A DNA stretch of 64,000 nt from Pontiella sp. (GCA_050290185.1 JBNKHE010000005.1:160001-224000), one strand, 5' to 3'; counted from the stretch's first letter, positions 14,813 through 64,000 are shown. Numbers and translations are program-made. The notes: generated by a model not told the origin, from the sequence alone.

Positions 14813-14816
14813 CGGT

Positions 14817-21537: not shown

Positions 21538-21630
21538 GCCCCGATCCGTAAATTTGCTCCGTAAAAAGTTCCAGCCCATCATTTTTTTCTGCTAGATTTA
21601 CAGCCTTTCGAACGCAGAAAGGATTTTGTA

Positions 21631-22323: not shown

Positions 22324-22422
22324 AATTTAGATTTTTGAATGCCGAATTGTGGGTCTGCGACCGCTTTGCTTTACGGACATGGCCAGAACCCATCCACAAA
22401 TCAAAATTCGAAAATCGAAAAT
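22321..22422. repeat. Intergenic inverted structure built from degenerate heptamers
   Basis: Left tagaatt tagattt ttgaatg ccgaatt gtgg; right ccacaaat caaaatt cgaaaat cgaaaat. Confidence 0.5.
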
Positions 22423-22436
22423 AAGGAAAATACATC

Positions 22437-23234
22437 ATGAGCAAACCGAAGGTTTTGATTATTACGGGATATGGGGTGAACTGCGAGGCAGAGTCGGCCC
22501 ATGCGTGGAAGCGGGCCGGTGCCAAGCCCAAACTGGTGCACCTTAACGATCTGCTGGATAATCCGTCACAGCTCGAAGAATTTCAGGCCATGATGTTTAT
22601 CGGCGGATTTTCCTATGGCGATCATATGACCAGCGGCCATGTTTTTGCCATGCGCGTGAAACATCACATGCAGTCCGAGCTGCAAAAGTTCATCGATGAC
22701 GGCAAGCTCATCATGGGCATTTGCAATGGCTTCCAGGTGATGACCAAGATGGGCCTTTTGCCCGGTCTCAACAGCAACTATTTCGAGCCAACGGTTTCGT
22801 TGATGCAGAACGACTGCGGCACCTTCCAGAACTTCTGGGTGGATATCCGCTTCGAGGATAGCTCACCTTGCGTATTTACCAAGGAAATCGGCACCCTTCC
22901 GCTTCCAATCCGGCACGGTGAAGGCAAGATCTTCACCCTCGACAACGAACTGCTCGAACGCATTGAAGCGGAAGGCTGTGTGGCCGCTCGGTATGTCGAC
23001 AAGAGTAATAACCCCACGCAGGACTTTCCGGCCAATCCAAACGGCTCGCTCAACGCCATTGCCGGGCTGTGTGACCCGACTGGACGCATATTCGGCATGA
23101 TGCCGCATCCGGAAGCCTACCTCTTCCCCGAAAACCATCCCAGCTGGGACAAACAAAAGCTGGATGGCACGCTTCCTGAACAGGGCCTCGGCTTGAAGCT
23201 GTTTAAAAACGCGGTGCATCACATCACCGGATAA
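22437..23234 (+). CDS. purQ: Phosphoribosylformylglycinamidine synthase glutaminase subunit
   Basis: G.NCE.E, GGFSYGD, GICNGFQ, HGEG, NPNGS, GMMPHPE. Confidence 0.95.
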   Translation: MSKPKVLIITGYGVNCEAESAHAWKRAGAKPKLVHLNDLLDNPSQLEEFQAMMFIGGFSYGDHMTSGHVFAMRVKHHMQSELQKFIDDGKLIMGICNGFQVMTKMGLLPGLNSNYFEPTVSLMQNDCGTFQNFWVDIRFEDSSPCVFTKEIGTLPLPIRHGEGKIFTLDNELLERIEAEGCVAARYVDKSNNPTQDFPANPNGSLNAIAGLCDPTGRIFGMMPHPEAYLFPENHPSWDKQKLDGTLPEQGLGLKLFKNAVHHITG

Positions 23235-49619: not shown

Positions 49620-52088
49620 CTATTCTTCAGGCATGTCAACGGAACAAGGCTCCAGATGCCAAATATCATCGCAGTAGTCCTGAATCGACCGGTCTGACGA
49701 GAACCACCCCATACGAGCAACATTGAGAATGGCCTTTTCTGCCCACTTTGAGGACGTGGAATACAGTTTGTCTACTTCGTCATTGCACTTCACATAGTCG
49801 GCAAAGTCGGCGAGATAGAAGTAGAAGTCGCCATGTTCCGTGAGATCATTGTAGATATCCTTGAATAGATCGGGCATCGAGGGATCGAAGATGTTGTCGC
49901 GGATGGCTTCCAGCACCTTGGTCAGATCCTTGGATTTATCCATGTAGGAGCGCGGGTTGTATCCCTTGCGGCGGAGCTCCTCCAGATCCTCGGTGCGGTT
50001 TCCGAAGATGAAGATGTTATCCTCGCCTACATGCTGTGCAATTTCGACATTTGCGCCGTCCCAGGTACCCACGGTCAGCGCACCGTTGAGGGAAAGCTTC
50101 ATGTTGCCGGTCCCCGAAGCTTCGAGTCCTGCGGTGGAAATCTGCTCGGAAATATCCGCCGCCGGAATGATTTTTTCGGCGAGAGAGACATTGTAGTCCG
50201 GAAGGAAGATTACCTTCAGGCGTCCGGCCACATCAACGTCATGATTGATCACGTCCGCCATCGAGTTAATCAGCTTAATCACCGACTTGGCGATGAGATA
50301 GGCCGGCGCGGCCTTCGCCGCAAAGATGAAGGTACGCGGCTGGATCTTGACCTTCGGGTTTTCCTTTATCTTGTTGTAGAGATAGATGATATGCATCGCT
50401 TTCAACAACTGGCGCTTGTACATATGCAAGCGCTTGATCTGAACATCGAAAATCGAATCAGGACTGACGTTATGCCCGGTAAGGTCAAGGATCGTTTTGC
50501 ATAGTTCGGCCTTATTGGCGCGTTTGATCTCCATAAAGCGCTTCTGGATGCCACGGCTCTTGGCCGATTCCTCAAAGGCCTTCAGCAGCGAGAGATCCTT
50601 TTTCCACTCAACTCCAATCTGCCCGGAGATCAGATCCGTCAGTGCCGGATTAGCCTTGAGCAACCATCGCCGGTGCGTAATGCCGTTGGTGATATTGCAG
50701 AACTTGCCTGGATAGAGTTTGTCGAACTCGGGCATGGTCTTAGTGCGAAGCAATTCGGAATGCAATGCGGATACGCCGTTGACCTTGCTGCTGCCAACCA
50801 CACATAGATTGGCCATGCGAACCTGTTGGTGCGGACCTTCTTCGATCAGAGAAACATTGCGCATCAATTCGCCGGCACCGGGGCTGGAAATTTCCACTTT
50901 TTCCAGGAAGCGGTGGTTGATCTCGTAGATGATCTGCATGTGGCGCGGAAGCACGCGCTGCAACAGGTCGACCGTCCATTTTTCCAGCGCCTCAGCCAGC
51001 AGGGTGTGGTTCGTATAGCAGAAGGTGTTGGACGTAATTTCCCAGGCCTTGTCCCACGGAATCCGTTCTTCGTCGTGGAGCACACGCATCAGTTCTGGAA
51101 TCGCGAGGGTGGGATGGGTGTCGTTGAGCTGAATCACATTTTTTTCAGCAAACCGGGTGAAATCGTTATGGTTCTTCTTGTAGCGGCGGATAATGTCCCG
51201 TACGGAGCAGGATGCGAGGAAGTATTCCTGAATCAGCCGCAACTCCTTGCCGGCATAGGTAAAGTCCGAGGGATAAAGTACCTTGGATACGTTTTCCGCC
51301 CAGTTCTTTTCTTCAACCGCACGGACATAATCGCCTTGGTTGAAAACATCCAGCCGGAAGCCTTCGGCCGCCTGTGATTTCCAAAGTCGGAGCATATTTA
51401 CCGAATTTACGCCATAGCCAATGATCGGCACATCGTAGGGAACAGCTTCGAAGACCTGGAAATCCTCCCAGATATCGGCATCTCCTTTTCCGGGCGCAAA
51501 GTTTTTCTTTACCCGGCCGTATACGCAAACCGGCAATGTGTATTCCGGTCGGATCAATTCCCATGGATAACCGAGCGCAAGCCATTCATCGGGACGTTCA
51601 CACTGCCAGCCGTTATCGAATTCCTGACGAAAAATCCCGTGTTCATAACGGATGCCATAGCCATAGGCCGGCAGCTGCATGGTTGCGAGGGAATCCAGAT
51701 AGCAGGCCGCAAGACGACCGAGGCCGCCATTGCCGAGACCGGCTTCAACATCGAGATCGAGAACCTCTTCGACCGTGGTATCCAGGGCCTTGAGTGCTTC
51801 GGGAACAATCTTTTCTATGCCAAGGGCGTACATGTTGTTCTCGAGCATCTTGCCGATGAGATACTCCATGGACAGATAATTTACACGCCGCACATCCTGT
51901 TCCAGATACTGCTTCTGGGTGGCAATAAATCCGTCGACGGCCATGTCGCGTACAGCATGCGAAAAGCAGCTCATCTTATCGAATGTGGTCGCGGCTCCGA
52001 GATCCTTGCCCCGGCTGTACTTGAGATGAAACAGAGCCCGCTTGCTCAACCGCTCCGCCGTGATGCTATCTTTAAAATGTTTTGACAT
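49620..52088 (-). CDS. glgP: Glycogen/alpha-glucan phosphorylase
   Basis: GLGNGGLGRLAAC, QLNDTHP, NGVS.LH, EASGTGNMK. Confidence 0.96.
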   Translation of the reverse strand: MSKHFKDSITAERLSKRALFHLKYSRGKDLGAATTFDKMSCFSHAVRDMAVDGFIATQKQYLEQDVRRVNYLSMEYLIGKMLENNMYALGIEKIVPEALKALDTTVEEVLDLDVEAGLGNGGLGRLAACYLDSLATMQLPAYGYGIRYEHGIFRQEFDNGWQCERPDEWLALGYPWELIRPEYTLPVCVYGRVKKNFAPGKGDADIWEDFQVFEAVPYDVPIIGYGVNSVNMLRLWKSQAAEGFRLDVFNQGDYVRAVEEKNWAENVSKVLYPSDFTYAGKELRLIQEYFLASCSVRDIIRRYKKNHNDFTRFAEKNVIQLNDTHPTLAIPELMRVLHDEERIPWDKAWEITSNTFCYTNHTLLAEALEKWTVDLLQRVLPRHMQIIYEINHRFLEKVEISSPGAGELMRNVSLIEEGPHQQVRMANLCVVGSSKVNGVSALHSELLRTKTMPEFDKLYPGKFCNITNGITHRRWLLKANPALTDLISGQIGVEWKKDLSLLKAFEESAKSRGIQKRFMEIKRANKAELCKTILDLTGHNVSPDSIFDVQIKRLHMYKRQLLKAMHIIYLYNKIKENPKVKIQPRTFIFAAKAAPAYLIAKSVIKLINSMADVINHDVDVAGRLKVIFLPDYNVSLAEKIIPAADISEQISTAGLEASGTGNMKLSLNGALTVGTWDGANVEIAQHVGEDNIFIFGNRTEDLEELRRKGYNPRSYMDKSKDLTKVLEAIRDNIFDPSMPDLFKDIYNDLTEHGDFYFYLADFADYVKCNDEVDKLYSTSSKWAEKAILNVARMGWFSSDRSIQDYCDDIWHLEPCSVDMPEE

Positions 52089-52169
52089 ATATTAACCCCA
52101 TTTAAAGTACTGCTTCTCAACTGACCTTTAATTAGCTTAGAGGGTGGGGGGATGCAAGTTCCGTTGGGA

Positions 52170-52667
52170 TTAATTGTAGTTACGCTGTTCAATCGCGAGC
52201 AACAGACGCTTCCAGGCAATCCCGCAGGAGAATCCTCCCGGATTGCCATCGGAACAGATAACGCGATGGCAGGGTATAAAGAGAGGGACAGGATTACGTC
52301 CGCATGCATTTGCGACAGCACGGCATGCAGAGTTGTTTCCCAGCATTTCAGCCAGCTCTTTATAGGAACGTGTTTCTCCATGGGGGATTGTAAGCATTGC
52401 ATTCCAGACGTTCTGCTGAAAGATGGTCCCCCGTAATTTCCCAACAAGAGGACGTTCGGGATTTCCTCCCTCCAACAGTTCCTTAACGTAGCGCGAGAAC
52501 GGGTCGGTTACGGATTCCAAAACACCAAAGGAGTCTCGCGGGACATCGGTTAAATGCGGCAGGCTGCATTCCACCACGCCATCACGATCGTTCACTATCC
52601 GGATGGAACCCCAGCTGGAGAGGACGGTGCACACCTGGCTTTCATCCCTTATGGCGCAGGTGTTCAT
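52170..52667 (-). CDS. ogt: Methylated-DNA--protein-cysteine methyltransferase
   Basis: GT.FQ..VW, RAVA.AC..NP, IPCHRV. Confidence 0.92.
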   Translation of the reverse strand: MNTCAIRDESQVCTVLSSWGSIRIVNDRDGVVECSLPHLTDVPRDSFGVLESVTDPFSRYVKELLEGGNPERPLVGKLRGTIFQQNVWNAMLTIPHGETRSYKELAEMLGNNSACRAVANACGRNPVPLFIPCHRVICSDGNPGGFSCGIAWKRLLLAIEQRNYN

Positions 52668-52672
52668 CGTGA

Positions 52673-53407
52673 CTAATCTCCCAGCGAAGGAATCACCAGC
52701 GTCTGTCCAACGCGCAGTGAATTCGGATTGGAAAGCGAATCCCTGTTTGCATCGAATATGATATCTGAATGGGAAGAGTCACCGTAAAATTTTGTGGCGA
52801 TTTTCGTAAGGTTGTCGCCGGCTACGACCGTATAGATCGAATGGCTACGTGCCGGCTTGGCCGCAGGTTTCACCGTTGTCGGGGCCGGCTCCGGCTTGGG
52901 TTCCGTTTTAACAACCGCTGCCGCCTGGGGGGCTTGCCTGGAAGACGGGCCACTGGAGGCCAACTGCTTCCTGAGGGACTCGTTTTCCTGCTGCAGTCGT
53001 TTCAGTTCGACGGCCACCTTTTGAATCTCCGGTGATTGCTGGATTGCCTGAATTGCGAGCGCTCGCGATACCTTGTCGCGTTGCTCACGAATGAATGTCG
53101 CTTTTTCGGACTCGGGGCGAAGTTCAAGATAACGATCATAATGATAGATGGCGTAGATATAGTTCGGCTTGTACTGCTGATAGATCAGGGCGAGATTCAG
53201 GTGGGGTTTCGCCATGAGCGGATCGTTGTCCAGCGCCTCTTTGAAAGCCTGTTCCGCTTCATCCCATTGACTTTGCTCCATGTAGGCTACACCGGTTTTT
53301 ACCAGTGGATCTCGTTCCTCCTTCTCGTCGGCAGACAGTCCGTTGTCATTGCAACCCGTCATGGCGAGAACGGCGATACAGAGCGGGATAGAGTATAGTT
53401 TACGCAT
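52673..53407 (-). CDS. Lipoprotein with TPR, coiled coil and C-terminal LysM domain
   Basis: Lipobox MTGC; TPR-like helices; YTVV.GD.L..IA..FYG ... L.VGQ.L.IP. Confidence 0.85.
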   Translation of the reverse strand: MRKLYSIPLCIAVLAMTGCNDNGLSADEKEERDPLVKTGVAYMEQSQWDEAEQAFKEALDNDPLMAKPHLNLALIYQQYKPNYIYAIYHYDRYLELRPESEKATFIREQRDKVSRALAIQAIQQSPEIQKVAVELKRLQQENESLRKQLASSGPSSRQAPQAAAVVKTEPKPEPAPTTVKPAAKPARSHSIYTVVAGDNLTKIATKFYGDSSHSDIIFDANRDSLSNPNSLRVGQTLVIPSLGD

Positions 53408-53438
53408 AATTCCAATCCTTTTTTATTAACCAAATCCT

Positions 53439-54665
53439 TTATGGATGATTCGCATCAACCGAGGAAATATATCCCGTCGCCCTCACGAATCCCGAACTAA
53501 ATTTCTCGATTATTGAGCCGTCCGTTTCCCGTAGCAGGAACATGGCCTCGACACCCGGCCTGTTCTCAACCCACACCAGCCCTTCCTCCGGTCCCATTAC
53601 ATACAGGGCGGTCGCCATGCCATCGGCATCGGTGCAGTTATCTGCGAAAACCGAGACGCTCGCGGTATGGGAGAGCACGGTTCGTCCAGTTCGCGGATCT
53701 AGAATATGGGTATAGATGACTCCGTCCTTTTCCAGGTAGTTTCGATAGTCGCCCGATGTTGCAACGGCTCCGGAAGAAAAATTGAGAATCCCCTGCAGCG
53801 CGTCGTCCAAGGGGTTGGTGTCCGGATACTGGATGCCGATTTTCCAAGGGACTCCGGCAGGATTCAATCCCTTAACCACAACCTCACCGCCGATTTCAAC
53901 GAACCAGTTTTCGAATCCCGCTTTTTCCAGGATATGGGCAACGGCATCGACTCCATACCCCTTTGCAATGGCCCCCAGCGCCAATGATACTTCCGGTTCG
54001 CTCTTGCGCAGACCGGTCGGCGATGGCACCGAGACTTTCTCCCAGCCGGTCATCGCTTTGGCTTCGGCGATGGCTACATCGGATGGAACCGCACTGGTGA
54101 CACCTTCGCTTCCGAATCCCCACAGATTAAGCAAGGGTTGCAGTGTGGGGTCGAACGCTCCGTCCGTAGTTTCACTGAAATCCAAAGCCCGGGAGACCAC
54201 CTTTGCAAAACCTTCCGACACCGTGATGGGATTCGTTGAGATCGAATGGTTGAACATGGAGATTTCGCTATCCATATCCCAGGTGGACATCTGACGATTG
54301 ACCTCCTGTAATTCAAGGATGATGTCGTTGATTAGCTTTTCGGCACCGGCGGGTTGCAGATGGTCGGCTATCCGGATGCTGTATGTGGTCCCCATGGTCC
54401 GCCCCCAAATGGACGGTTGCAGCAATGAAACCTCCGGATTCCATTTATCCAACGGCAACTGGATGGCGACTGCGCCGATTCCGCTGGTGTGCGGCATTTT
54501 CTTCAAGTCGGCACGTTGCATTCCGCAAGTCATCGCAACCTGCCCGGGATCAATTTCAATCGAAACAGCCACAGGAAGCCGGTTCCAACGATAGTACCCC
54601 CCTGAAAAAAGCGCGATGACAAGCCCAAGGCCAATGAGATTGCGTTTCCAGGAATAGTTTATCAT
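53439..54665 (-). CDS. apbE: FAD:protein FMN transferase
   Basis: TMGT, GAFDPT, GAIAKGY.VD, GGE, ATSGDY, HILDPRTG, AD..ATA. Confidence 0.92.
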   Translation of the reverse strand: MINYSWKRNLIGLGLVIALFSGGYYRWNRLPVAVSIEIDPGQVAMTCGMQRADLKKMPHTSGIGAVAIQLPLDKWNPEVSLLQPSIWGRTMGTTYSIRIADHLQPAGAEKLINDIILELQEVNRQMSTWDMDSEISMFNHSISTNPITVSEGFAKVVSRALDFSETTDGAFDPTLQPLLNLWGFGSEGVTSAVPSDVAIAEAKAMTGWEKVSVPSPTGLRKSEPEVSLALGAIAKGYGVDAVAHILEKAGFENWFVEIGGEVVVKGLNPAGVPWKIGIQYPDTNPLDDALQGILNFSSGAVATSGDYRNYLEKDGVIYTHILDPRTGRTVLSHTASVSVFADNCTDADGMATALYVMGPEEGLVWVENRPGVEAMFLLRETDGSIIEKFSSGFVRATGYISSVDANHP

Positions 54666-55045
54666 CAGGCCTTGGCCACCAGTTCGATTTCCACCAGCGA
54701 AGCTTTGGGCAAGGCGGCCACCTGCACGGTTGACCGGGCAGGTGCGTTTTCTTCGCCAATGTATTCCGCATAAACGGTGTTGAGTTCAGGAAAGTCATTC
54801 ATATCTGCCAAGAATACCGTGGTCTTGATGACATCATCCAGCGTGCACCCGGCGGCCTCGAGAACGGCCTTTAGGTTTTCAAACACCTGGATGGTTTGTT
54901 CGCGGATTCCACCGTCCACGAGAACGCCGGTTGCCGGGTCAATGGGAATCTGTCCCGATGTATAGATGAGATGTCCACACTTGACGGCCTGATTGTACGG
55001 CCCGATCGGAGCGGGAGCCTGGTCGGTATTTATGATGTGCTTCAT
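54665..55045 (-). CDS. ridA: RidA family enamine/imine deaminase
   Basis: AP.PIGPY.QA, SGQIP, PARS.V.V..LP....VEIE. Confidence 0.93.
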   Translation of the reverse strand: MKHIINTDQAPAPIGPYNQAVKCGHLIYTSGQIPIDPATGVLVDGGIREQTIQVFENLKAVLEAAGCTLDDVIKTTVFLADMNDFPELNTVYAEYIGEENAPARSTVQVAALPKASLVEIELVAKA

Positions 55046-55060
55046 AATGCTATCCTTTCT

Positions 55061-56140
55061 TTAAGACGGTTTTTCAAGTTCCTCGATGATTTTCAAGTCG
55101 GCTTTGGAGTAGGGGTAGTCCCTTAGGTTCGAAATCCTGAGCCACTTGTAGTCCTGGCAGTGAATAGGGCGGGGACGGCCGGAGCGTATCCGCGCGTGGT
55201 ACGCATGCATATCCATGGTAAAATGGCTATAGGCGTGTTTTACCGTGACCAGAAAATCGCCGACTTCGATGTTTACGCCCAGCTCCTCCTTCAACTCTCG
55301 CGCAATACACTGCTGAATGGTTTCACCGGTTTCTTGCTTGCCACCCGGGAATTCCCACAGGCCTCCAAGCATATCCTCGTTCCTCCGCTGGGCAATCAGA
55401 ACTTCGCCTTTGCGGTTGGAGACAATCGCCGCACCCACAACCATGTGAGGCACCTTCTTTTTGGTCGCTTTTATCGGATAGTCAGTGGGGCGTTCGGACT
55501 TTTGAGCCAGACAGACGGATGAAACCGGGCAGATACCGCACTGGGGGTTCCTGGGGAGGCAGATGGTTGCTCCAAGCTCCATCATGGCTTCGTTATAGTT
55601 TCCCGCGTCACCGGCGACCAGCAGCTGATCGGTCATTTGCTGCAGTTCCTTTCGTGCGGCGCTTCCCGCCGTATCCTTGGTGTAGGCATACAGCCGAGAA
55701 AGCACCCGAATCACGTTTCCATCGAGCACGGCAAGATCCAGATTGAAGGCCAGCGATCCAATGGCGGCAGCGGTATAGCTGCCGATCCCCGGCAGTTGCT
55801 GGATTTCCTCGGCCGTCCGGGGAAAGCGCCCCTTATGTTCGTCTGCAATAATCCGAGCCGCCTTGTGCAGATTTCTCGCCCTCGAATAATAGCCGAGACC
55901 TTCCCACATTTTCAGCACGTCTTCCTGAGATGCGGCAGCCAGGGATTTCAGCGACGGAAACCGTTTCATGAAACGGTGGAAATAGGGCGTGGCCTGGTCC
56001 ACACGGGTCTGCTGCAGCATCAACTCCGAAATCCAGACGCGATAAGGAGTCCGGTTGCTTCGCCATGGCATACTGCGCCGGTTGGCGGAAAACCATGGAA
56101 GCAGTTTGGTTTTGATGGCCTGTTTGGTGTCCATTGTCAT
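55061..56140 (-). CDS. mutY: A/G-specific adenine glycosylase with a C-terminal MutT-like Nudix domain
   Basis: SELMLQQT, W.GLGYY.RARN, LPGIG.YTA, DGNV.RV, C.P..P.C..CP....C, HAYSHF. Confidence 0.95.
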   Translation of the reverse strand: MTMDTKQAIKTKLLPWFSANRRSMPWRSNRTPYRVWISELMLQQTRVDQATPYFHRFMKRFPSLKSLAAASQEDVLKMWEGLGYYSRARNLHKAARIIADEHKGRFPRTAEEIQQLPGIGSYTAAAIGSLAFNLDLAVLDGNVIRVLSRLYAYTKDTAGSAARKELQQMTDQLLVAGDAGNYNEAMMELGATICLPRNPQCGICPVSSVCLAQKSERPTDYPIKATKKKVPHMVVGAAIVSNRKGEVLIAQRRNEDMLGGLWEFPGGKQETGETIQQCIARELKEELGVNIEVGDFLVTVKHAYSHFTMDMHAYHARIRSGRPRPIHCQDYKWLRISNLRDYPYSKADLKIIEELEKPS

Positions 56141-56152
56141 TTGCGCAGAACC

Positions 56153-57400
56153 TCATCGGGGTATCATATGAATGATCTGGATCCGGCGATGGGTTGCCGA
56201 ATGGATGCGGAGCGTGTATCCAGGGACCTCCAGACTTTCGCCAACCTTGGGAATGCGCCCCAGTTCTGCAAAAACATATCCACCGAGCGAGTCATATTCC
56301 TCGCTTTCCGGAAGATTCGTGGACAGTATTTCATTCATTTCGTAAATAGGCATGCGCGCCTTGATCATAACGCTGCCATCGGGTCGACGGTGGAACTCCT
56401 TTTCTTCGAGGTCGTATTCATCCTCGATCTCACCCACCAATTCCTCAATCACATCCTCCATGGTCACAAGCCCCTCGGTGCCGCCGTATTCGTCGACGAC
56501 CAACACCATCTGGGAACGCGACGTCTTCATCAGTTGAAGAAGGTCGTTCAACGGCATCGTCTCCGGCACGAAATCAATGCGTTTGACCAGCTGACTGATT
56601 GAGGTTTCGGATTCAATGGCCGTGACCGACAGCCGAAGCAGATCCTTCACGTGCACCATCCCGACAACATCATCGATGTTTTCATGATAGACGGGAAAAC
56701 GGGAGTGCCTTGATTCCTTGACCTGCTCAATGCATTCGCCAACCGTCAAGGTGTCCTTTATTCCGCTGATATCGATACGCGGCGTCATGATCTCGCGGGC
56801 AATGGTGTCGCCAAACTCGAAAACACTGCGAATAATTTCCCGTTCCTCTTCCTCGAGATTCTGTTCATCCGTATCCTCCAGAAGACTGATGACTTCATCT
56901 TCCGTCGAGGGACGGTCCTCCTCATCGGACGCGGACATCGCATGGGACAACAACCGATCCTCGATTCGCTGCAACGGCCAGACAAAGATGTACAAAGCCA
57001 GCGTGACCGGCTCAACAATCGGAAGCGCAGACAATGAAATCCGATCCGCATAACTTTCGGATAAGATGTGGGGAATGATCCGCGCGATTAGCATATAGGC
57101 CAGTGAGTAGACAAACAGCGCCGCAAATAGCACCGGCGCCGCACAATCCCTGATTGATAGATAAAACAACACAAACGTCGCGATGGCGCACAGCGTCAGC
57201 AGCAGCCGGGTAGTTTTACAAAGCAGGTTCCATCGGTCCTTCCAACGCTCCAGGAGCTTTAATCTTCGGCCGGCACGCTCAATTAAGCGGGGGAGGCCAA
57301 CATCACCGGTATATCTTAAGGAGTCGAAAACGGAGGCAAGCAGACCTGCAAAAAAAAGAGCAATAAGGCTGTAGGCGAATAAATTCGTATGTATGTACAT
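56153..57400 (-). CDS. Hemolysin/CorC family transporter-associated protein (CNNM + CBS pair + CorC_HlyC)
   Basis: N-terminal TMs, REIMTPR, HSRFPV, VVDEYGGT.GLVT.ED..EE.VGEI.DE.D. Confidence 0.9.
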   Translation of the reverse strand: MYIHTNLFAYSLIALFFAGLLASVFDSLRYTGDVGLPRLIERAGRRLKLLERWKDRWNLLCKTTRLLLTLCAIATFVLFYLSIRDCAAPVLFAALFVYSLAYMLIARIIPHILSESYADRISLSALPIVEPVTLALYIFVWPLQRIEDRLLSHAMSASDEEDRPSTEDEVISLLEDTDEQNLEEEEREIIRSVFEFGDTIAREIMTPRIDISGIKDTLTVGECIEQVKESRHSRFPVYHENIDDVVGMVHVKDLLRLSVTAIESETSISQLVKRIDFVPETMPLNDLLQLMKTSRSQMVLVVDEYGGTEGLVTMEDVIEELVGEIEDEYDLEEKEFHRRPDGSVMIKARMPIYEMNEILSTNLPESEEYDSLGGYVFAELGRIPKVGESLEVPGYTLRIHSATHRRIQIIHMIPR

Positions 57401-57668
57401 CAACGCTTTCAATTATGGATTCAGTAATTTCTTTTCTGCCTGTACTAAAGCGCATGCTTCGTTTTCTTTCCAGTCAAACCCTCTGCCAAAGTGAAGTACG
57501 TTAAACCTGAATGAGTACCGAATCCGCGACGCTTCAGAAGAATGCATCCAAATAGTAATCAATCAATTCCTCATGAATTTGTCCGTCCAGTCCCGAATCT
57601 CCTCATAGTAGTCCGAATAGCCCGCAAACCAGCAAAACCACCATATTTAGAGCAAATCACAAACCATA

Positions 57669-57696
57669 TATAGACATAAGATTTATTATGCGACGT
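57669..57696 (-). other. dif-like XerC/XerD recombination site (candidate att junction of the prophage)
   Basis: Minus strand ACGTCGCATAA-TAAATC-TTATGTCTATA; 11-6-11 layout matching E. coli dif GGTGCGCATAA-TGTATA-TTATGTTAAAT at 7/11 in each arm, with the inner CATAA/TTATG intact. Confidence 0.72.
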
Positions 57697-57826
57697 TCTA
57701 ATTGTAAGTAACTCTGTTAATAGTTTTTGCATAAGTACCGAGGCCAAAAACTGGCCTGAAAAAAAGTGAAAATATTTTCATGCGATCCCCTCTAAAAATC
57801 GAATTTCGGATTTTGCGCAGTACGAA

Positions 57827-57988
57827 TTACGATTTTTCTTTGTTCTCGATGGCCTTCGTGATCAACAAGGCAAGCTTTCCTTGTTCGATGGCAGAAAGCT
57901 TTTCTAGTCCGTTGATCGTCGTGCGCAACATGGCATCTCTTATTAGCTTTGCGCGCTTTCGTTTCGTTGCTGGAAGAAATGGATTCAT
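57827..57988 (-). CDS. Prophage small basic protein (53 aa)
   Basis: Hand translation MNPFLPATKRKRAKLIRDAMLRTT...KEKS*; TAATG overlap with the upstream gene. Confidence 0.6.
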   Translation of the reverse strand: MNPFLPATKRKRAKLIRDAMLRTTINGLEKLSAIEQGKLALLITKAIENKEKS

Positions 57989-58224
57989 TATTCTTTAGAA
58001 GAAATTTCAGAGGCCCGATACCAAACCATCGTACCAGGAATGAGAAGCATCCGACCTTGACGCTTTCCTGTCTTGTGGTCGATCAAGCCTTCCGTCCACA
58101 TTCCGGAAGCCGGCACACGGTAGACGGCATCAGGATTGAATGTTGTTGTCAGCTTCGTACTGGCGCAGCTCGTCATTAAGAGAGTCACGCAAGCTATCGT
58201 TATCATCGGCGGGGCTTTCTTCAT
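57988..58224 (-). CDS. Prophage lipoprotein, o-spanin-like
   Basis: Hydrophobic leader with lipobox MTSC; overlaps the 3' end of a TM-anchored gene in another frame. Confidence 0.55.
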   Translation of the reverse strand: MKKAPPMITIACVTLLMTSCASTKLTTTFNPDAVYRVPASGMWTEGLIDHKTGKRQGRMLLIPGTMVWYRASEISSKE

Positions 58225-58330
58225 ATTTCATAGCCTCTGATTTTTGATCATGCCTGGACAATAGAACCTTGAGCACGGAAACCGCGATTGCGGCCAGAAT
58301 CGTGCCCAAGGTTGCGGCGAGAGATTCCAC
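58130..58330 (-). CDS. Prophage N-terminal TM protein, i-spanin-like
   Basis: Single N-terminal TM then a charged helical tail; GTG start 4 nt after the holin-like stop. Confidence 0.5.
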   Translation of the reverse strand: MESLAATLGTILAAIAVSVLKVLLSRHDQKSEAMKYEESPADDNDSLRDSLNDELRQYEADNNIQS

Positions 58331-58333
58331 CGG

Positions 58334-58618
58334 CTATTTACCGGCCTTGCTGCTCAAGTTAATGGCCAGCGTGTTGATGATCCGTTTTACGAATGCCCAG
58401 GCGGGCGGATCGGTTGGCTTGACCTCGAAGAAATTGGCAATGATTGAGCTGGCGGCCACCAGCAACGGCAGCACAACGGTCAACGCCATATCCCACCCTG
58501 CCGACCCCGTCGTTCCATCAACCGGCGCAACATCCGTCTGGGCCATTCCGATTGCGGGAAACATCAATACGACGAGCATCGCCAGCATTATAATCATTTC
58601 AGACATGTTCATTTTCAT
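58334..58618 (-). CDS. Prophage holin-like membrane protein
   Basis: AAGGAG RBS, Met-Lys-Met start, two hydrophobic segments, 'AASSIIA...KP.D....RIINTLAIN..KA' tail resembling small phage holins. Confidence 0.55.
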   Translation of the reverse strand: MKMNMSEMIIMLAMLVVLMFPAIGMAQTDVAPVDGTTGSAGWDMALTVVLPLLVAASSIIANFFEVKPTDPPAWAFVKRIINTLAINLSSKAGK

Positions 58619-58634
58619 TTTGATCTCCTTTGGG

Positions 58635-58811
58635 TTAATGAAATGCGTGGATTGCGCGATCCTCGATATGGCGATCCAGTCGAGCATGGGCTTTGCTGAT
58701 AGAGTTGTCCTGGTGATCGAGTCGGTTGAGCAAAAGCTTTATGGCAATCCCCGAAATGATCGTTTGAGCACCAAGCAACATTGCAATCACAACCCCTAGC
58801 GTTCCGTCCAT
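58635..58811 (-). CDS. Prophage small membrane protein (58 aa)
   Basis: Hand translation MDGTLGVVIAMLLGAQTIISGIAIKLLLNRLDHQD...AFH*; TAATG coupling. Confidence 0.6.
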   Translation of the reverse strand: MDGTLGVVIAMLLGAQTIISGIAIKLLLNRLDHQDNSISKAHARLDRHIEDRAIHAFH

Positions 58812-59152
58812 TACGTCCCTACCTTCTTAAAAACTTGCGTGATCGGTTTCCGGTATGCAATGAGCGTCGTTAGGCCAAGGGCCACCAGCGTTGATATTGC
58901 TGCCTTGGCGATAGTTTTCCCGGTGGCCGTGGCAGCGGTGGCGATTTGATCTCTGTATCCCCCAACCGTTTCGGCCACGGCCCCAGGAAGTTGAGCAATC
59001 AGTGAATCGTTTTGAAGTCCCCCATGGAATGCCACAAGTTCAGCGGTGCGCTGTTTTGGCCTGGAATCGTTCCATGTTGTCGCATTCCACCCGCGGGAAA
59101 TCAGGAAGTGCTTATAGGCTGGATTCGAATCGAGGGCATCCCATAGCGTCAT
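58811..59152 (-). CDS. Prophage protein with a C-terminal TM anchor; N-terminal domain paralogous to 63829-63990
   Basis: ATGA coupling; TM followed by a basic tail. Confidence 0.7.
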   Translation of the reverse strand: MTLWDALDSNPAYKHFLISRGWNATTWNDSRPKQRTAELVAFHGGLQNDSLIAQLPGAVAETVGGYRDQIATAATATGKTIAKAAISTLVALGLTTLIAYRKPITQVFKKVGT

Positions 59153-59835
59153 GGCGTTGCTCCATACAGTTCGGATCTACGACGCCACTCGGGCGAAACC
59201 GTAAAGATCACAACGTTTCCGGCTGCATCGCGGTATGGTTCGTGCGTCTTGTCGTAAAGAACCATATGCCAAGTAATGTTACGGGAATACTCGTTGACCT
59301 TGGCAGCGGCCAGCGTTGAGCGTGTCAACCAGGTTTCCGCCGAAAGCGGATTTGCATTTGGCGTCTCCAGTGCGAGACTATTGGCCGACATCAGCGCGTT
59401 GCTATTTCCGGTTGCTGCTGTTCGGTAATACACTTGCGCTTGTGTATCGACCTGAACACCAGTCTCGAAATTCTGGACATATTCAGTTCCCACATTAAAA
59501 ACGAATGTGTAGTACCCGTCGCCGTCGTAGGAAACGGGGCTCGGGCTTGCAAGTTCCGATAGCCCTCCCGACCATCCATAGGAAATTACGGACGCCTGCA
59601 ATGTTCCGTTGTACGAGTATGGAGTCGTAGAAATCGACGTAACCGTTTCGCCCGGATTGCCCGTCACAGTGGTGCTCCAAATTCCTAGCAGGACATTATC
59701 AACATGAACATTTAACACCGTGTTACTTGGTACGGTGCTGCCAAAATTGACAACGAGTTTATACCGCAATAAAACGGCGTTAGACTCCGATGCAGCAAGC
59801 AACCCAATGAGAGATAATAGAAATATTTTTTTCAT
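59149..59835 (-). CDS. Prophage signal-peptide-bearing, beta-rich protein (spike/receptor-binding candidate)
   Basis: AGGAG RBS; MKKIFLLSLIGLLAASESNA leader; S/T/V/Y-rich. Confidence 0.65.
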   Translation of the reverse strand: MKKIFLLSLIGLLAASESNAVLLRYKLVVNFGSTVPSNTVLNVHVDNVLLGIWSTTVTGNPGETVTSISTTPYSYNGTLQASVISYGWSGGLSELASPSPVSYDGDGYYTFVFNVGTEYVQNFETGVQVDTQAQVYYRTAATGNSNALMSANSLALETPNANPLSAETWLTRSTLAAAKVNEYSRNITWHMVLYDKTHEPYRDAAGNVVIFTVSPEWRRRSELYGATP

Positions 59836-59846
59836 GCTTAAGACTC

Positions 59847-60395
59847 CTATTGTAGAACCGTCGACGACCAATTTTTTCCCTGCAAGCTTGGGTAGTTGTC
59901 CCATTCCGCGGTTGATATTGAACTTGCATAAAATACCGGCGTCCCTGGAGCCGACTGGTCGATCGCGAACAATTCAAAATCACAATACGGGAATGTATTT
60001 GTGTTGATTCCCGAGGTGACGTTCGTTGTCACCAGATCCATAGCGGCAAAGGTTGGCGACACATTGGTCGTAATGGTTGCGACTGGCGCGAACGTCGGTG
60101 TCATGTTGGTAACGCTCACAAGTCCATTGCTAACGGTCGTGAATGACACAACATTTGTCACCCAGCCAGATAGAGCCTGAACGGTGTTCGTTGAAACATT
60201 GGTCACGCTCCCCGAATACGCCTGAACGGTGTTCGTTGAAATATTGGTCGCGGCAGCGGTGAATTCCGGTTGCAACTGCACAGGAATCACAAACCTCGCA
60301 TACGGTTTATAGATTGGATTGTTTATTGAGCTTTGGCCGAATGCTGCCGAAGCGCACACGGCAAAAATCATTAGTGCTGCAAAAAGTGTCCGCAT
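59847..60395 (-). CDS. Prophage signal-peptide-bearing Thr/Asn-rich repeat protein
   Basis: MRTLFAALMIFAVCASAAFG-Q leader; TN[IV]STNTVQA repeats. Confidence 0.65.
   Translation of the reverse strand: MRTLFAALMIFAVCASAAFGQSSINNPIYKPYARFVIPVQLQPEFTAAATNISTNTVQAYSGSVTNVSTNTVQALSGWVTNVVSFTTVSNGLVSVTNMTPTFAPVATITTNVSPTFAAMDLVTTNVTSGINTNTFPYCDFELFAIDQSAPGTPVFYASSISTAEWDNYPSLQGKNWSSTVLQ
60175..60252. repeat. 45-bp period tandem duplication in the TN-rich gene
   Basis: GCCTGAACGGTGTTCGTTGAAA(C/T)ATTGGTC at 60175 and 60220. Confidence 0.85.
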
Positions 60396-60397
60396 AA

Positions 60398-61099
60398 TTA
60401 CCCCTTCATGATTTCATTGATCGAAAGTGTGCTGTCGGCATCTTGCGCCACGAAATAGATTACACCGTGACAACTGAGGGACACCGAACCGCTCGGGAAG
60501 ATCGGGGTTCCCCTGCCCGCAGCCGGATTGACAGAGGAATCGCCCCACCATATTGTATAGTCGCCCGTGTTCACAACCAGGCGTTCTTTGACCAGAGCAT
60601 TCGCGGCCAGGACTGAGGGGTTTGCCGGATCTGTTCCAACGGCAAGCGGAGCGGGTGTGCTGACTGAAGACCCCGACAAATCGACTTGCAGAAATCCTTC
60701 AATGACCGCCCGCGTGTCAGTGATCGGCCCCAGGGAAAGGACATATTCAATCGTCATAGATTCATCACTGGTATTATGAAACCGAACCTTGTTGAAGGTC
60801 GCCGGTTCGTAGGTCTTCTTATCGGGAGACAAACGGACAACCGGATAGCCGGTTCCGGCCTTGATGAAATTTGAAATTCCATTGTCCATGGAAATTAGCA
60901 CGTCAGTCGAAGCGGTGTTCGAAAAAATAGCGACGTATGATCCAAGGAATGGAACTTCCTTCTCTGACTGGGCTGAAACTGTAACTTTCCCGAATTTCTG
61001 ATTATTGGAAATCGGCATATCCGAGTAAGGAACCTTTTGACTCTGTGCGGCCATCACGGCGGCAACAATGGCCTGGATGTCTTCCGGGGTCAGATTCAT
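60398..61099 (-). CDS. Prophage structural protein, vertex/penton candidate
   Basis: Two beta-rich halves; 'AN...K...V.N.G...IW.GD..V....G.PI.P.G.V.L....IY' resembles small jelly-roll virion domains. Confidence 0.55.
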   Translation of the reverse strand: MNLTPEDIQAIVAAVMAAQSQKVPYSDMPISNNQKFGKVTVSAQSEKEVPFLGSYVAIFSNTASTDVLISMDNGISNFIKAGTGYPVVRLSPDKKTYEPATFNKVRFHNTSDESMTIEYVLSLGPITDTRAVIEGFLQVDLSGSSVSTPAPLAVGTDPANPSVLAANALVKERLVVNTGDYTIWWGDSSVNPAAGRGTPIFPSGSVSLSCHGVIYFVAQDADSTLSINEIMKG

Positions 61100-61707
61100 C
61101 TTTTCTTACGTCCTTTCACGACCATTCCAACCAGGATCAATCCCCCTAGCCCAAGGCCTAGATTTGCTTTGGTGAAAATTGTTTTTTGTTTGGCCCCTGG
61201 TGTCGTTGGCTTGGAAATTCCGCCCCCTGACACAGTAGACCCACTTAGGAATGCCGGAGCTGCCGACAACTGCCCCGGTGAAAAATTATCAAGCACCTTG
61301 TTCGTGTTTTCGTAGGTGAGCTGCAAAGCCTGGTCGATGATCTCTTGTGTACGTTCATCGAGCGCATGGTTCACGTAGCTCGACCCCTCGCCCACAGTGA
61401 CACCGTAATTGACGCTCGAACCGTCGCCGATGATTTGCCCCTGGTTATTATCCATTGAGGTTTGGTTCACGGTGTATTCAGACCCGACGCCTTGCTGAAT
61501 GCCATTGTTGACCGCAGACCTGTCGCCATATATGACGCCTTGGTTTCCATCGATCTGACTTGCATTATCGCCGAGAACGGTCGCCCCGATTCCGACATCA
61601 GTACGGACGTTAGATGCCCCCTCCCCCAGCACAACGGCGTTATCAGACGCCATCATATTATTGTTCGTCGTTTGCTGCCGGTTAGATTGTTTGGATCCGC
61701 CGCCCAT
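61096..61707 (-). CDS. Prophage MGGG-start membrane/DNA-delivery protein candidate
   Basis: MGGGSKQSN.QQTTNN start, internal V[LI]G[DE].[AS]S.V repeats, C-terminal TM + GRKKR. Confidence 0.65.
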   Translation of the reverse strand: MGGGSKQSNRQQTTNNNMMASDNAVVLGEGASNVRTDVGIGATVLGDNASQIDGNQGVIYGDRSAVNNGIQQGVGSEYTVNQTSMDNNQGQIIGDGSSVNYGVTVGEGSSYVNHALDERTQEIIDQALQLTYENTNKVLDNFSPGQLSAAPAFLSGSTVSGGGISKPTTPGAKQKTIFTKANLGLGLGGLILVGMVVKGRKKR

Positions 61708-62159
61708 TAGACAATCCTCTTGTAATAGGTTTCGACCTTAACGAACCCATGTTGCTCCAACCGGCGATCCATGCCTTGGCGCATACTTCTAACGCTCCAT
61801 GATTCGATTCGGCTTTTTTCGGCGAGTCCGTGTAGCAATGGATAAAGGGTGCAGATGAACGGAATTTCCTGTTGAACTACCGACACCGCGTGCAAAACGA
61901 GGAAATTGCAGGGTTTCCCATATTCACATTCAACCTGGCCGGTAACGATCCCGATCAGCTCGCCTTCCCGCTCAACTCGATAAAGCAGAATTCCCCCGCT
62001 TCGAATCTGATTTTCGATCCAGTCCAGACGATCAACCAACCCGACCCGGGCGGTCGTATTGTTTCTCTCCGATCTGGCAATCAGATTGCGAACGCCCGGA
62101 AACATATCCGAACGTTCGCACCGAACCACCGCTAGATCTATGACTTGTGAATCAGCCAT
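61707..62159 (-). CDS. Prophage GNAT-fold-like protein
   Basis: 150 aa; LY.V...GE.IG strand pattern and C-terminal 'S.R.GM.R.L...GF...ET.Y' like GNAT motif B. Confidence 0.55.
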   Translation of the reverse strand: MADSQVIDLAVVRCERSDMFPGVRNLIARSERNNTTARVGLVDRLDWIENQIRSGGILLYRVEREGELIGIVTGQVECEYGKPCNFLVLHAVSVVQQEIPFICTLYPLLHGLAEKSRIESWSVRSMRQGMDRRLEQHGFVKVETYYKRIV

Positions 62160-62332
62160 GCCGAAATTCCGCCAATTGCAGCCATTCCGAGCAGCCCGAA
62201 CGCGATGGATTTACCAACCCCTCCACCGATCAAGGTCTGGCGGGCACCAGCAATAGCACCGAAGTCATTGCTCGTTGGCCCGTTAGACCCGCCCGTAAAG
62301 GAGGGATTGACAGTTACACCGCCGCCGCCCAC
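62138..62332 (-). CDS. Prophage small Gly-rich membrane protein (MGGGG start)
   Basis: GTG overlapping the upstream TAG; C-terminal TM. Confidence 0.6.
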   Translation of the reverse strand: MGGGGVTVNPSFTGGSNGPTSNDFGAIAGARQTLIGGGVGKSIAFGLLGMAAIGGISAWLIHKS

Positions 62333-62616
62333 TACTTGCCATCCTTTGATTTCATCCAAAGGCCCATCCCCAGCAGAAGCGAAGTCCCGCCGCCAAACCA
62401 AACCCACTTAGAAATCTTTTTGGGTTTGGCCGGTTCGGCAGGTGCGTTCATTGGAGCGGCAGCAACGGGGGCGGTCGGACTTCCGACCTGTTGACCGTCC
62501 CCATTGAATCCGGTGGCATCGTAGATCCTGCTTGCGGCAGCGTCCGCCCCCGCCGTGACCAGTCGCTGACCAACGTTCGAGTTTAGACCGCTGTTTAATA
62601 GATCCCGAAGAGCCAT
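62332..62616 (-). CDS. Prophage membrane protein with a C-terminal anchor (position of PM2 P3)
   Basis: Directly follows the capsid gene; Pro/Ala linker, then KWVWFGGG.SLLLG.GLW.K. Confidence 0.65.
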   Translation of the reverse strand: MALRDLLNSGLNSNVGQRLVTAGADAAASRIYDATGFNGDGQQVGSPTAPVAAAPMNAPAEPAKPKKISKWVWFGGGTSLLLGMGLWMKSKDGK

Positions 62617-62618
62617 GG

Positions 62619-63506
62619 CTACGCCGCCTTTCGATCCTTGAAGATCTGTTCGTACCACAGGCGACCGTTCGAGGTTACGCCAGCACCGTCATCCGCGAAA
62701 TTCGGAGTGACCAGGAGCGACCCCAGGCCGGTTTCGAAGAAATACGCCGGAACGTCTTCCTTGTTGAAATCGACCGTCGCAAATCCAGCCTGCGGCGAAC
62801 GATAGCGGTACTCCAGCCATCTGTTGATGATGACCTGGGGAACATCCCGATAGGGATACTGCTTGGAGTTGATTGCGACTGTCCAATCGGCAACCGACAA
62901 GTGCGCGGGCTCCTCGAAGTGAAGGGCATTCAGGCACAGGTTCGGATTGTCGAACGGAATCGTCGAGATTTCAACCTGTCCGCCACCGGCAGGAACCGTC
63001 ACCGACTGACTGCCGATACGAACGTGGTCGCCCAGTTCCTGTTTCAGGTTGAAGTCCACGTCTGCCCAGATGTCGATCCGGGTGCATCCGGTCGTATCGG
63101 CAGAATATTGGAACTCCGCCGTCATGGCCTTAAGATCCGCGGTTCCGATCGTCAACTGGTTGCGACGGCCTTCGTCCTTGCCAACACCGGCAGCAGGATC
63201 AAAGTTGATCTGCGACGCACTTGCGGCCACGCCGATCGTTTCATAATGAAACGCATCGCGATAATTCAGGAACGAGGGAGTCACCTTATTGAGCAGCGCG
63301 AATCCGTCGCCGTTCTGGTGGTCGACACTCAGTGTCAAATTGGCGAGTGCATCAGCAAGCGCCGTGCCCGCACATAACGTGCCGCCATTCCACCCCTGGA
63401 AAATGAACTTCCCGAAAGTGCCCTGGTGCTTGATGTCGATTTCAATCGGTTCATTGCCGCCATCTGAGACATTCACCGATCCGATTTTGAGAGGATTCCG
63501 AATCAT
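62619..63506 (-). CDS. Double jelly-roll major capsid protein, PM2 P2-like
   Basis: 295 aa, beta-rich; LTIGTADL..M..EF, GQVEISTIP......ALHF and N..LE...R.PQAG...VDF..E resemble PM2 P2 segments as I recall them; TAATG coupling. Confidence 0.75.
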   Translation of the reverse strand: MIRNPLKIGSVNVSDGGNEPIEIDIKHQGTFGKFIFQGWNGGTLCAGTALADALANLTLSVDHQNGDGFALLNKVTPSFLNYRDAFHYETIGVAASASQINFDPAAGVGKDEGRRNQLTIGTADLKAMTAEFQYSADTTGCTRIDIWADVDFNLKQELGDHVRIGSQSVTVPAGGGQVEISTIPFDNPNLCLNALHFEEPAHLSVADWTVAINSKQYPYRDVPQVIINRWLEYRYRSPQAGFATVDFNKEDVPAYFFETGLGSLLVTPNFADDGAGVTSNGRLWYEQIFKDRKAA

Positions 63507-63667
63507 TACGCGGCCGCCTTTCCTGTTGCGCCTGCGACGGTCGACTTGACCCTCGCTTCGGCTTTCATCATCGCACCGTGCAGACGGTTCGCGATCATTG
63601 ACCCGACCACAACCAGGGCAACTAAGCCCAAAGGGTTGGCCGGTAGCATTTTTTTCTTCGCACTCAT
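63506..63667 (-). CDS. Prophage small membrane protein preceding the capsid gene (53 aa)
   Basis: AAGGAG RBS; MSAKKKMLPANPLGLVALVVVGSMIANRLH...AAA*. Confidence 0.7.
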   Translation of the reverse strand: MSAKKKMLPANPLGLVALVVVGSMIANRLHGAMMKAEARVKSTVAGATGKAAA

Positions 63668-63760
63668 GTTGGCTTTTCTCCTTGGTTGTGATTTCCAACT
63701 TTCAGAAATAATTGTTTCACGGAAAAAAGCCGTTGGTCAGTTCGAGCGGAATTTCGCGGG

Positions 63761-63799
63761 AAAAAAGAAAGGGAACCCCTGAAATAAAGGGATTCCCTT
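63761..63799 (-). terminator. Intrinsic terminator separating upstream prophage genes from the structural operon
   Basis: Minus strand AAGGGAATCCCT-TTATTTC-AGGGGTTCCCTT followed by TCTTTTTT. Confidence 0.7.
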
Positions 63800-63828
63800 G
63801 CGAAATTTTACTAATTTTGTGCGGTCAG

Positions 63829-63990
63829 TTAATGCATTTTCGAGCGCATTTCAATCCAGTCATTGAAAAGATACCTTTCCGCTGTCCGCTCAAACGCAGT
63901 TGATTCGTTCCACATTACTTCTGTCCAACCTCTACGGATAAGGAACCGCTTATATGGCAAATCAAGCTTCAGGCACTCCCAAAAACTCAT
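63829..63990 (-). CDS. Prophage small soluble protein (53 aa), paralog of the 58811-59152 N-terminus
   Basis: Hand translation MSFWECLKLDLPYKRFLIRRGWTEVMWNESTAFERTAERYLF...MH*; GGAG RBS. Confidence 0.7.
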   Translation of the reverse strand: MSFWECLKLDLPYKRFLIRRGWTEVMWNESTAFERTAERYLFNDWIEMRSKMH

Positions 63991-64000
63991 TATTCTCCAC

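Follow-up and report, generated by a model that had tools for sequence, protein, structure and literature searches.

Two ideas about PM2-like tailless phages are already known, namely that these phages are widespread and temperate, and that many of them borrow the host's machinery for resolving chromosome dimers in place of an integrase. CTXphi and TLCphi of Vibrio cholerae, which are filamentous single-stranded DNA phages or satellites, reportedly behave as integrative mobile elements exploiting Xer (IMEX): they are said to integrate at dif by means of XerC and XerD, recombinases of the host, without an integrase of their own, and to form tandem arrays. In the phage attachment site (attP) of TLCphi the XerC arm is good and the XerD arm degenerate, a form that the element described here presumably resembles. 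Among double jelly-roll (DJR) phages, PM2 itself carries a 17-bp dif-like attP, and the dif-type DJR prophages of Vibrio have full, left-armed or right-armed attP sites and occur in tandem arrays, according to PMC12715192; NO16-like phages have been proposed to use XerCD (PMC9966536). In 2022 Yutin et al. (PMC9502842) reported Verrucomicrobia-linked Vinavirales prophages, which they describe as extremely divergent, possibly degenerate and lacking a known lysin, P15 and P16; they call the integration of most Vinavirales prophages 'unclear' and name an IS630-type transposase for HGV-2. Here we describe such an element in a 64,000-nucleotide stretch of the Pontiella sp. genome G000 (contig C5, positions 160001-224000; hereafter the window), in which a minus-strand gene array at 57827-64000 had been taken, in a sequence-only reading, for a PM2-like prophage of a PVC/Kiritimatiellota host.

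We regard it as highly probable that this array makes up the late half, with the virion and lysis genes, of a temperate Vinavirales phage that at 15.3 kb looks complete, is inserted in the dif of a marine Pontiella-like host and most likely acts as an IMEX. The remainder of the element was followed in the overlapping locus L002 (C5:216001-236000; window coordinates are L002 + 56000). The run of minus-strand open reading frames (ORFs) at 57827-64000 is unbroken, with stops and starts that overlap or abut, and every ORF of the array as first listed was found again; the run goes on past 64000 on the same strand to about L002 16870, so that about 9 kb of the 15,279-bp prophage lies past the window end. 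To the left the prophage is followed by a 419-aa host ORF (56153-57412) and to the right by arginyl-tRNA synthetase (ArgRS; L002 17379-19106). The ArgRS is 81-88% identical to that of 17 records named Pontiella, Pontiellaceae, Kiritimatiellales or 'Verrucomicrobiota' metagenome-assembled genome, and 56-74% identical to that of the remaining 63 of 80 named loci. The flanking gene therefore places the host, by sequence identity, as a Pontiella-like member of the Kiritimatiellales, in agreement with the host first proposed. The sequence-only reading had also called the lineage undescribed and its kind known mainly from Proteobacteria. Verrucomicrobia-linked Vinavirales were in fact known (PMC9502842), so this part of the claim was overstated, but we found no Kiritimatiellales DJR or tailless-phage case in the literature searched, and in one supplementary file of PMC9502842 the Verrucomicrobia-linked contigs listed look Opitutae-like, two rows carrying the label HGV-2, and 'Kiritimatiell' and 'Pontiell' do not occur there. 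Judged by its sequence, then, the element is far from deposited phages, and it is a Vinavirales prophage of the dif type whose host class has no described example in the literature searched.

Capsid, packaging and replication genes

The capsid candidate (295 aa; 62619-63506, minus strand) begins at an ATG, and its homologues of 289-299 aa share the MIRNP start. Among 1.84 billion representative proteins it had 24 relatives at E<=1e-3, 15 at 1e-10 and 9 at 1e-30; a single-protein search of genome contigs and viral contigs returned no related loci. Its own Pfam match is to P2_C, the C-terminal domain of the PM2 coat protein (E 5.6e-5), and this domain was matched by 20 of the 21 aligned members of the family, with P2_N matched by 10 of the 21. 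As a single sequence the protein gave only chance matches against the PDB, and a family profile was therefore needed; with it there was one match, over the full length, to 9t9v_A, 'Double jelly roll capsid protein' (E 7e-22). We take this to be the capsid entry of vibriophage NO16, as the entry is cited in the NO16 structure preprint, and it is the best solved sequence match to the element capsid. The AlphaFold2 model of the protein (pLDDT 92.2, pTM 0.89) was searched against the PDB with Foldseek, where PM2 P2 (2vvf_A) ranked first (E 1.3e-17, TM-scores 0.76/0.83) and the further matches listed, which included entries from PBCV-1, STIV, PRD1 and other viral capsids, were mostly DJR capsid proteins. 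Alignment of the family with PM2 P2 by hhalign gave a probability of 97.3% (E 1.8e-11, 233 columns) at an identity of only 14-17%. By family and by predicted fold, the 295-aa protein is a PM2 P2-type DJR capsid protein, as had been anticipated for this ORF.

A packaging ATPase and a Rep, which had been expected beyond base 64000, were found there at L002 8380-9075 and 10854-12527, both on the minus strand. The first encodes a 231-aa P-loop protein with the Walker A sequence GATGAGKG, which matches PM2 P9 by BLASTP (E 9e-8) and also matches HerA models and the packaging NTPase B204 of STIV; its homologies identify it as an FtsK/HerA-type packaging ATPase of the PM2 P9 kind. A search of 28 element proteins with the Pfam, PHROGs and NCBIfam models recognised no family of tail, portal, HK97 capsid, terminase-nuclease or integrase proteins, which bears out the tailless character of the array; the sole 'terminase large subunit' label (phrog_2666, E 6.5e-13) fell on this ATPase.

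The 557-aa Rep had 32 relatives in a large protein collection, several of them named hypothetical proteins of Pontiella, Pontiellaceae or Kiritimatiellales. The query itself matches neither Rep_trans nor Phage_CRI of Pfam, and it gave no match against the PDB, either as a single sequence or as a profile. Within its family of 24 aligned members, Rep_trans was matched by five (best E 5e-7) and Phage_CRI by five. The invariant columns of the alignment include R-x-D-x-x-x-D, Y-D-K and R-x-E-x-Q, putative motifs of the Rep_trans type. The matches of the family members thus point to a Rep_trans/G2P-like protein, and replication would probably be of the rolling-circle type. Next to it are a 135-aa SSB (L002 10460-10867; E 2.4e-32, Pfam) and a 260-aa Dam-type methylase (L002 12487-13269; E 1.1e-8 in Pfam, 7.5e-38 in PHROGs), both on the minus strand.

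The order of these genes is that of PM2. The annotated PM2 order is Rep P12, P13, P14, gp h, ATPase P9, P7 (34 aa), capsid P2, P3, P4, P8, gp j, spike P1, P5, P6, gp k and gp l, and that of the element is Rep, SSB, g19, ATPase, a helix-turn-helix (HTH) protein, g15, g14, capsid, g12, g11, g10, g09, g08, g07, g06 and five small membrane or lipoprotein ORFs. The two match position for position, with homology detected only for the capsid and the ATPase. The likeness to PM2 thus extends from the capsid fold and the ATPase homology to the succession of ATPase, small membrane protein, capsid, membrane proteins, spike position and lysis genes, and probably to a circular genome with a rolling-circle initiator. 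However, the element is larger (15.3 kb against 10.1 kb), its Rep is Rep_trans-like rather than of the P12 family, it has no detectable homologues of P1, gp h, P5, P13 or P14, and it has an extra SSB, methylase and g23. Membership of the Corticoviridae sensu stricto was considered and rejected, since tblastn with the capsid protein and the ATPase gave no meaningful match among deposited phages and the Rep is not of the P12 type.

The dif-type prophages of Vibrio and NO16 (proposed 'Asemoviridae', Vinavirales) are also tailless DJR elements without an integrase, inserted in dif with one junction regenerating the site (PMC12715192, PMC9966536). The host of the present element belongs to the Kiritimatiellales (Verrucomicrobiota) and is not a gammaproteobacterium; its terminal genes are a ribbon-helix-helix-like gene and a 53-aa ORF, with no relatives of P16/RstR or P15/XafT detected and no XafT-like factor identified; and its genes include those for a Rep_trans-like initiator, SSB and Dam methylase, with no BLAST-level match to deposited phages. 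The prophages of Vinavirales clade A ('Mestraviridae') and those linked to Verrucomicrobia, as described in PMC9502842, have in common with it a PM2-group capsid, a Verrucomicrobiota host, high divergence, and the lack of a recognisable endolysin, P15 and P16; compared by description, the element differs from the latter in its Pontiella-like rather than Opitutae-like host and in its insertion in dif. Finally, CTXphi and TLCphi are filamentous, whereas this element is predicted to be an icosahedral DJR phage.

Prophage borders and the insertion site

A 13-bp exact direct repeat is present at L002 1684 and 16963, 15,279 bp apart. Its left copy lies within a 28-bp site, attL (57669-57696, plus strand), that reads TATAGACATAA-GATTTA-TTATGCGACGT and comprises a XerD-like arm, a 6-bp centre and a XerC-like arm, the arm names being given by analogy only. 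The right copy lies within ACGTGACTCTC-GGTATA-TTATGCGACGT (attR, L002 16948-16975, window-equivalent 72948-72975), where the centre and the XerC-like arm alone are kept, and the right end of the element is L002 16975 (72975). The element had been started at 57827, the left edge of its last gene, but its actual left border is the att site, 131 bp further to the left. On the other strand the left site reads ACGTCGCATAA-TAAATC-TTATGTCTATA, and the inner CGCATAA and TTATGT are common to the arms of E. coli dif. A Vibrio dif consensus is quoted in PMC12715192.

In 6 of 11 same-genus loci an empty 28-bp site, TATAGACATAA-(G/T)ATATA-TTATGCGACGT, was found a few hundred bases from ArgRS, with flanks homologous to those of G000; the other five had no match to the site, some of these loci being short. 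The full site was present in 7 of the 80 named loci, all seven among the 17 closest, and cultured Pontiella strains seem to have an unoccupied dif locus. Its 17 specified bases are single-copy per genome, with no mismatch in four of five relatives and one mismatch in the fifth, and matches to this core with two mismatches occurred at the level of a reversed-pattern control. In two single-contig genomes of the order, the dif-like site and dnaA are separated by 50.6% and 42.5% of the genome, its length being rounded. In the 287-kb contig that carries the prophage, cumulative GC skew climbs as far as about C5:210,000 and declines beyond it, and attL (C5:217,669) is about 8 kb off this point. The sign switch falls inside the window, at about 50000-57700, so that the window includes the replication terminus and the chromosomal dif. 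The core ACATAA-N6-TTATG is unique in its own genome, but with an estimated chance expectation of about 1.7 matches its uniqueness says little; what carries the argument is the comparison between genomes, together with the longer conserved site. The empty site in relatives, its single copy, its position roughly opposite dnaA and the switch in GC skew together mark the insertion target, as judged by sequence comparison, as the chromosomal dif at the replication terminus. A tRNA scan found no tRNA gene, and thus no att site of the tRNA type.

No match to the tyrosine recombinase family PF00589 was found in the element, against ten elsewhere in the genome. The host has a XerD that scores 364 bits with TIGR02225 (cut-off 330), encoded on the same contig at G000:C5:56314-56832 (L013 1459-2346), about 160 kb from dif, and a XerC-like gene on contig C1. 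Since the element has no integrase and its att site copies the centre and XerC arm of dif, it most likely integrates through host XerC/XerD, as an IMEX, by analogy with the systems described above. Because the insertion in dif is exact, one junction regenerates a full dif.

Four DNA sequencing runs from one study contain the element as contigs, which were compared with L002; no RNA run was listed as containing it. In runs X3 and X4 a contig runs from the left flank through dif to base 1696 (57696) and then continues with 17 letters that are those of the host to the right of attR, and the right-flank contigs begin at L002 16963. The flank contig had 0 differences over 1.6 kb. These junction contigs confirm the borders to the base, and prophage-free cells, from the same strain or from one nearly identical to it, were present in the X3 and X4 samples. 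The contig breaks probably reflect a branch in the k = 31 assembly graph where prophage and empty-dif junctions are both present. Contig depth in these runs was reduced across the prophage relative to its flanks, a value that is no measure of the share of cells and so was not used.

Related elements and competing explanations

A search with the capsid profile detected the gene in 4 of the 401 genomes sampled from the phylum, with one weak match among these, and, G000 included, in 8 of the 89 genomes that represent species of the order; the related elements lie at dif and are patchy in their distribution. Six have enough flank for comparison (G000, G011, G420, G457, G465 and G467; the G435 contig is too short), and in each of them a full 28-bp dif-like site lies beside the lysis-gene end. 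At the regulatory end five (all except G011) have the centre and XerC-like arm only. G011 has two prophages in tandem at dif, about 91% identical (G011:C9:68001-108000, joined 11933-32370), of which copy 1 breaks off within its ATPase gene. Where the two copies meet, the sequence is ATTAGACATAA-GATATA and then an unrelated arm, with the full dif at the far end; this phage therefore mimics the XerD-like arm and has the opposite orientation relative to dif. Copy 2 has, between HTH and capsid, ORFs of 80 and 138 aa that by eye resemble an antitoxin/PIN-toxin pair, and a similar small two-gene pair lies upstream of the capsid gene in G134. The G134 element (G134:C119, joined 14694-22442) is a same-genus structural module beside ArgRS with a 71% identical capsid; it has the XerC-like arm on the ArgRS side, and its contig stops before the other border. 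Nothing in the 2.8 kb between its att arm and capsid module matches the ATPase, Rep or SSB of G000, and this copy may have decayed or recombined. The related elements in G465, G467 and G457, which belong to a different family within the order, retain the att design and the module from ATPase to lysis genes, and G457 and G467 have no match to the G000 Rep or SSB, a pattern that fits the frequent replication-gene replacement reported for Vinavirales.

Several observations weigh against a complete phage that moves by way of host Xer. The centres of attL and attR differ at two of six bases (GATTTA against GGTATA), a mismatch that may hinder clean Xer excision, and the XerC-like protein falls below the NCBIfam equivalog cut-off (TIGR02224, 309 bits against 335). 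The empty junction in X3 and X4 may come from uninfected cells of the same strain and not from excision, and no circular attP junction was present among 24 of 52 loose contig ends. On the side of the virion, the P2_C score of the capsid protein (23.5 bits) is just under the gathering cut-off of 25 bits, and tblastn against 50,697 phage records gave only two chance matches for the capsid (E 3-4) and nothing at E<=1e-3 for the ATPase. No homology to PM2 P1 was found for the spike candidate g08 by hhalign (probability 0.5%), or to PM2 gp h for g19, where the profile was very shallow (Neff 1.9). The 'GNAT-like' and 'vertex/spike' labels given to genes of the array agree with gene position and drew no significant sequence or fold support, g10 having no significant GNAT match by either. 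No endolysin was recognised among the 28 element proteins, and the lack of ATPase and Rep between att site and capsid gene in G134 suggests that some copies decay.

One alternative explanation is that the element is PM2-like by descent and now a cryptic, fixed remnant, without virion production or mobility. The missing endolysin, the lack of spike or ORF-h homology, the mismatched att centres, the incomplete copies in G134 and G011 and the phrase 'possibly degenerate', applied to Verrucomicrobia-linked prophages in the 2022 survey (PMC9502842), all fit this explanation. However, the 30-odd ORFs of the element are all open and tightly coupled, none of the core positions of the PM2 late operon is vacant, X3 and X4 contain occupied as well as empty sites without a difference in the 1.6-kb flank contig, and the patchy occupancy of dif across the order fits ongoing mobility. 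A remnant is thus unlikely, though it is the most serious of the alternatives.

A second explanation is that integration is carried out by an unrecognised enzyme of the element, such as the Rep_trans-like nuclease or g23, and that the likeness to dif reflects the choice of target only. Several element proteins are without known function, including g23 (268 aa; L002 13266-14072, minus strand), which falls in phrog_12600 (function unknown, E 1.6e-32). However, the half-site copies the centre and one Xer arm to the base in 6/6 elements, and in G011 it is the other arm that is copied and the orientation is reversed, which is what Xer substrates should show; moreover G457 and G467 share the att design without a match to the G000 Rep, and the same design is found in the Vibrio dif-type DJR prophages and NO16 (PMC12715192 and PMC9966536). 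We consider an enzyme of this sort improbable. That the element is non-viral, a plasmid-like or other dif-integrating element with a cellular-type jelly-roll protein, is very improbable: it has a Rep_trans-like initiator, SSB and methylase as plasmids do, and cellular homologues of DJR proteins are reported (PMC8812541), but its capsid is nearest in sequence and fold to the NO16 and PM2 virion proteins and stands beside a PM2 P9-like ATPase in the PM2 gene order, with membrane, spike-position and lysis genes.

If the element is, as we favour, a temperate phage that uses host Xer, its life cycle may be outlined as follows. The circular double-stranded DNA genome of 15.3 kb would replicate from a nick made by the Rep_trans-like protein, with the phage's own SSB. 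The late operon would build a capsid of the pseudo-T=21 type, a geometry taken from relatives, around a membrane vesicle with small C-anchored proteins, and the ATPase would package the DNA. Particles would be released by holin-like and lipoprotein factors, and in lysogeny XerC/XerD would recombine the one-armed attP with dif, leaving a working dif at attL; both steps are modelled on relatives. A bolder proposal, for which we see the chances as evenly balanced, is that the element belongs to an active, family-level new lineage of membrane-containing Vinavirales specific to Kiritimatiellia, in which mimicry of the attP arm has switched between XerC and XerD and so flipped the orientation of the prophage. 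If true, no temperate phage system would have been defined earlier for Kiritimatiellia, and the element would be the first DJR phage outside Proteobacteria to exploit XerCD/dif.

The element shows no new mechanism or architecture; what it does is to extend to a distant bacterial lineage the two ideas with which we began. Its borders are resolved to the base, where PMC9502842 left the integration of most Vinavirales open. The Kiritimatiellales are polysaccharide degraders with few cultures. The 28-bp dif site is a usable marker for finding such elements, and a dif-resident phage could become a genetic tool for Pontiella.

Remaining genes of the element

Transcription, from right to left in the window, would begin with the ribbon-helix-helix-like regulator and small early genes and proceed through g23, Dam methylase, Rep, SSB, g19, ATPase, HTH, the small membrane protein, capsid, C-anchored proteins, the 150-aa protein, the MGGG protein and the spike candidates to the lysis candidates; all the genes given below are on the minus strand. 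Between the ATPase and capsid genes are the HTH gene (L002 8208-8498, beyond the window), g15 (53 aa; 63829-63990) and g14 (53 aa; 63506-63667), the last with one transmembrane helix at the position of PM2 P7 and 72% identical in G134. The g19 gene (L002 9190-10065) is conserved in four elements and has the position of PM2 gp h.

Downstream of the capsid gene are g12 (108 aa from a GTG start; 62332-62658), at the position of PM2 P3 and with a homologue in G134, and g11 (89 aa; 62138-62407), at that of P4/P8. Both had been called C-anchored membrane proteins, and both do have hydrophobic tails, but the threshold scan for hydrophobic helices called an anchor only in g11. By analogy with PM2 the virion presumably has an internal lipid membrane. 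The g10 product (150 aa; 61707-62159) had no Pfam match at E<=10 for five family members, its best GNAT chain in the PDB was 2ae6 at only E 0.22, and 1 of 30 Atlas matches carries Acetyltransf_1, in 12% of that match's members. A GNAT gene sits at the equivalent position in other Vinavirales (PMC9502842). The product of g09 (203 aa; 61096-61707) starts with MGGG, has a hydrophobic, basic C-terminus and the position of PM2 gp j, and has homologues in G134, G435 and G420.

The beta-rich g08 protein (233 aa; 60398-61099) is 40-55% identical in G011, G134, G420, G435, G457, G465 and G467, a conservation second only to the capsid among the structural proteins. Its AlphaFold2 model was weak (pLDDT 65). 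With this model VIA-align placed PM2 P1 at the top (Z 10.0, root-mean-square deviation 2.0 Å, 82 residues), tied with cupin domains, and Foldseek gave generic jelly-roll/cupin matches at TM-scores of 0.2-0.3, with PM2 P1 at rank 17. From its gene position, which is that of P1, g08 is a candidate for the spike or penton. Both g07 (182 aa; 59847-60395) and g06 (251 aa; 59149-59904) are beta-rich with N-terminal hydrophobic leaders. The g06 protein, which has a weak match to phrog_23347 (E 9e-4) and is partly conserved in G420 and G435, is a candidate distal spike or receptor-binding protein. Within g07, a 45-bp tandem duplication at 60150-60239 (80% identical) gives this spike-region protein a repeated 15-residue motif.

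The lysis end of the operon consists of g05 (113 aa; 58811-59152), with a hydrophobic helix at its C-terminus, g04 (58 aa; 58635-58811), with one at its N-terminus, g03 (117 aa; 58334-58687), whose two hydrophobic helices make it a holin-like candidate, g02 (78 aa; 57988-58224) and g01 (53 aa; 57827-57988), the last gene, which adjoins attL and has no family match. The g02 protein has a lipoprotein-like leader ending in Cys and is conserved in G011, G420, G457, G465 and G467; its position, that of PM2 P18, suggests an outer-membrane lysis factor. The first 50 residues of g05 are paralogous to g15 (40% identity, E 1e-13), so that one small domain occurs twice in the element.

At the opposite end, g32 (68 aa; L002 16663-16869) is ribbon-helix-helix-like, with a NikA-like match at E 0.0044, below the cut-off. 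The early genes at L002 15686-16126 (146 aa) and 16139-16444 (101 aa) are paralogous (58% over 77 residues, E 7e-32) and have no family match. In L002 14979-16607 a near-identical stretch is common to the starts of six early genes (repeat families D1, D2 and D4); on the coding strand it consists of a Shine-Dalgarno-like AAGGAG, an 8-nt spacer and ATG, and resembles a repeated translation-initiation cassette.

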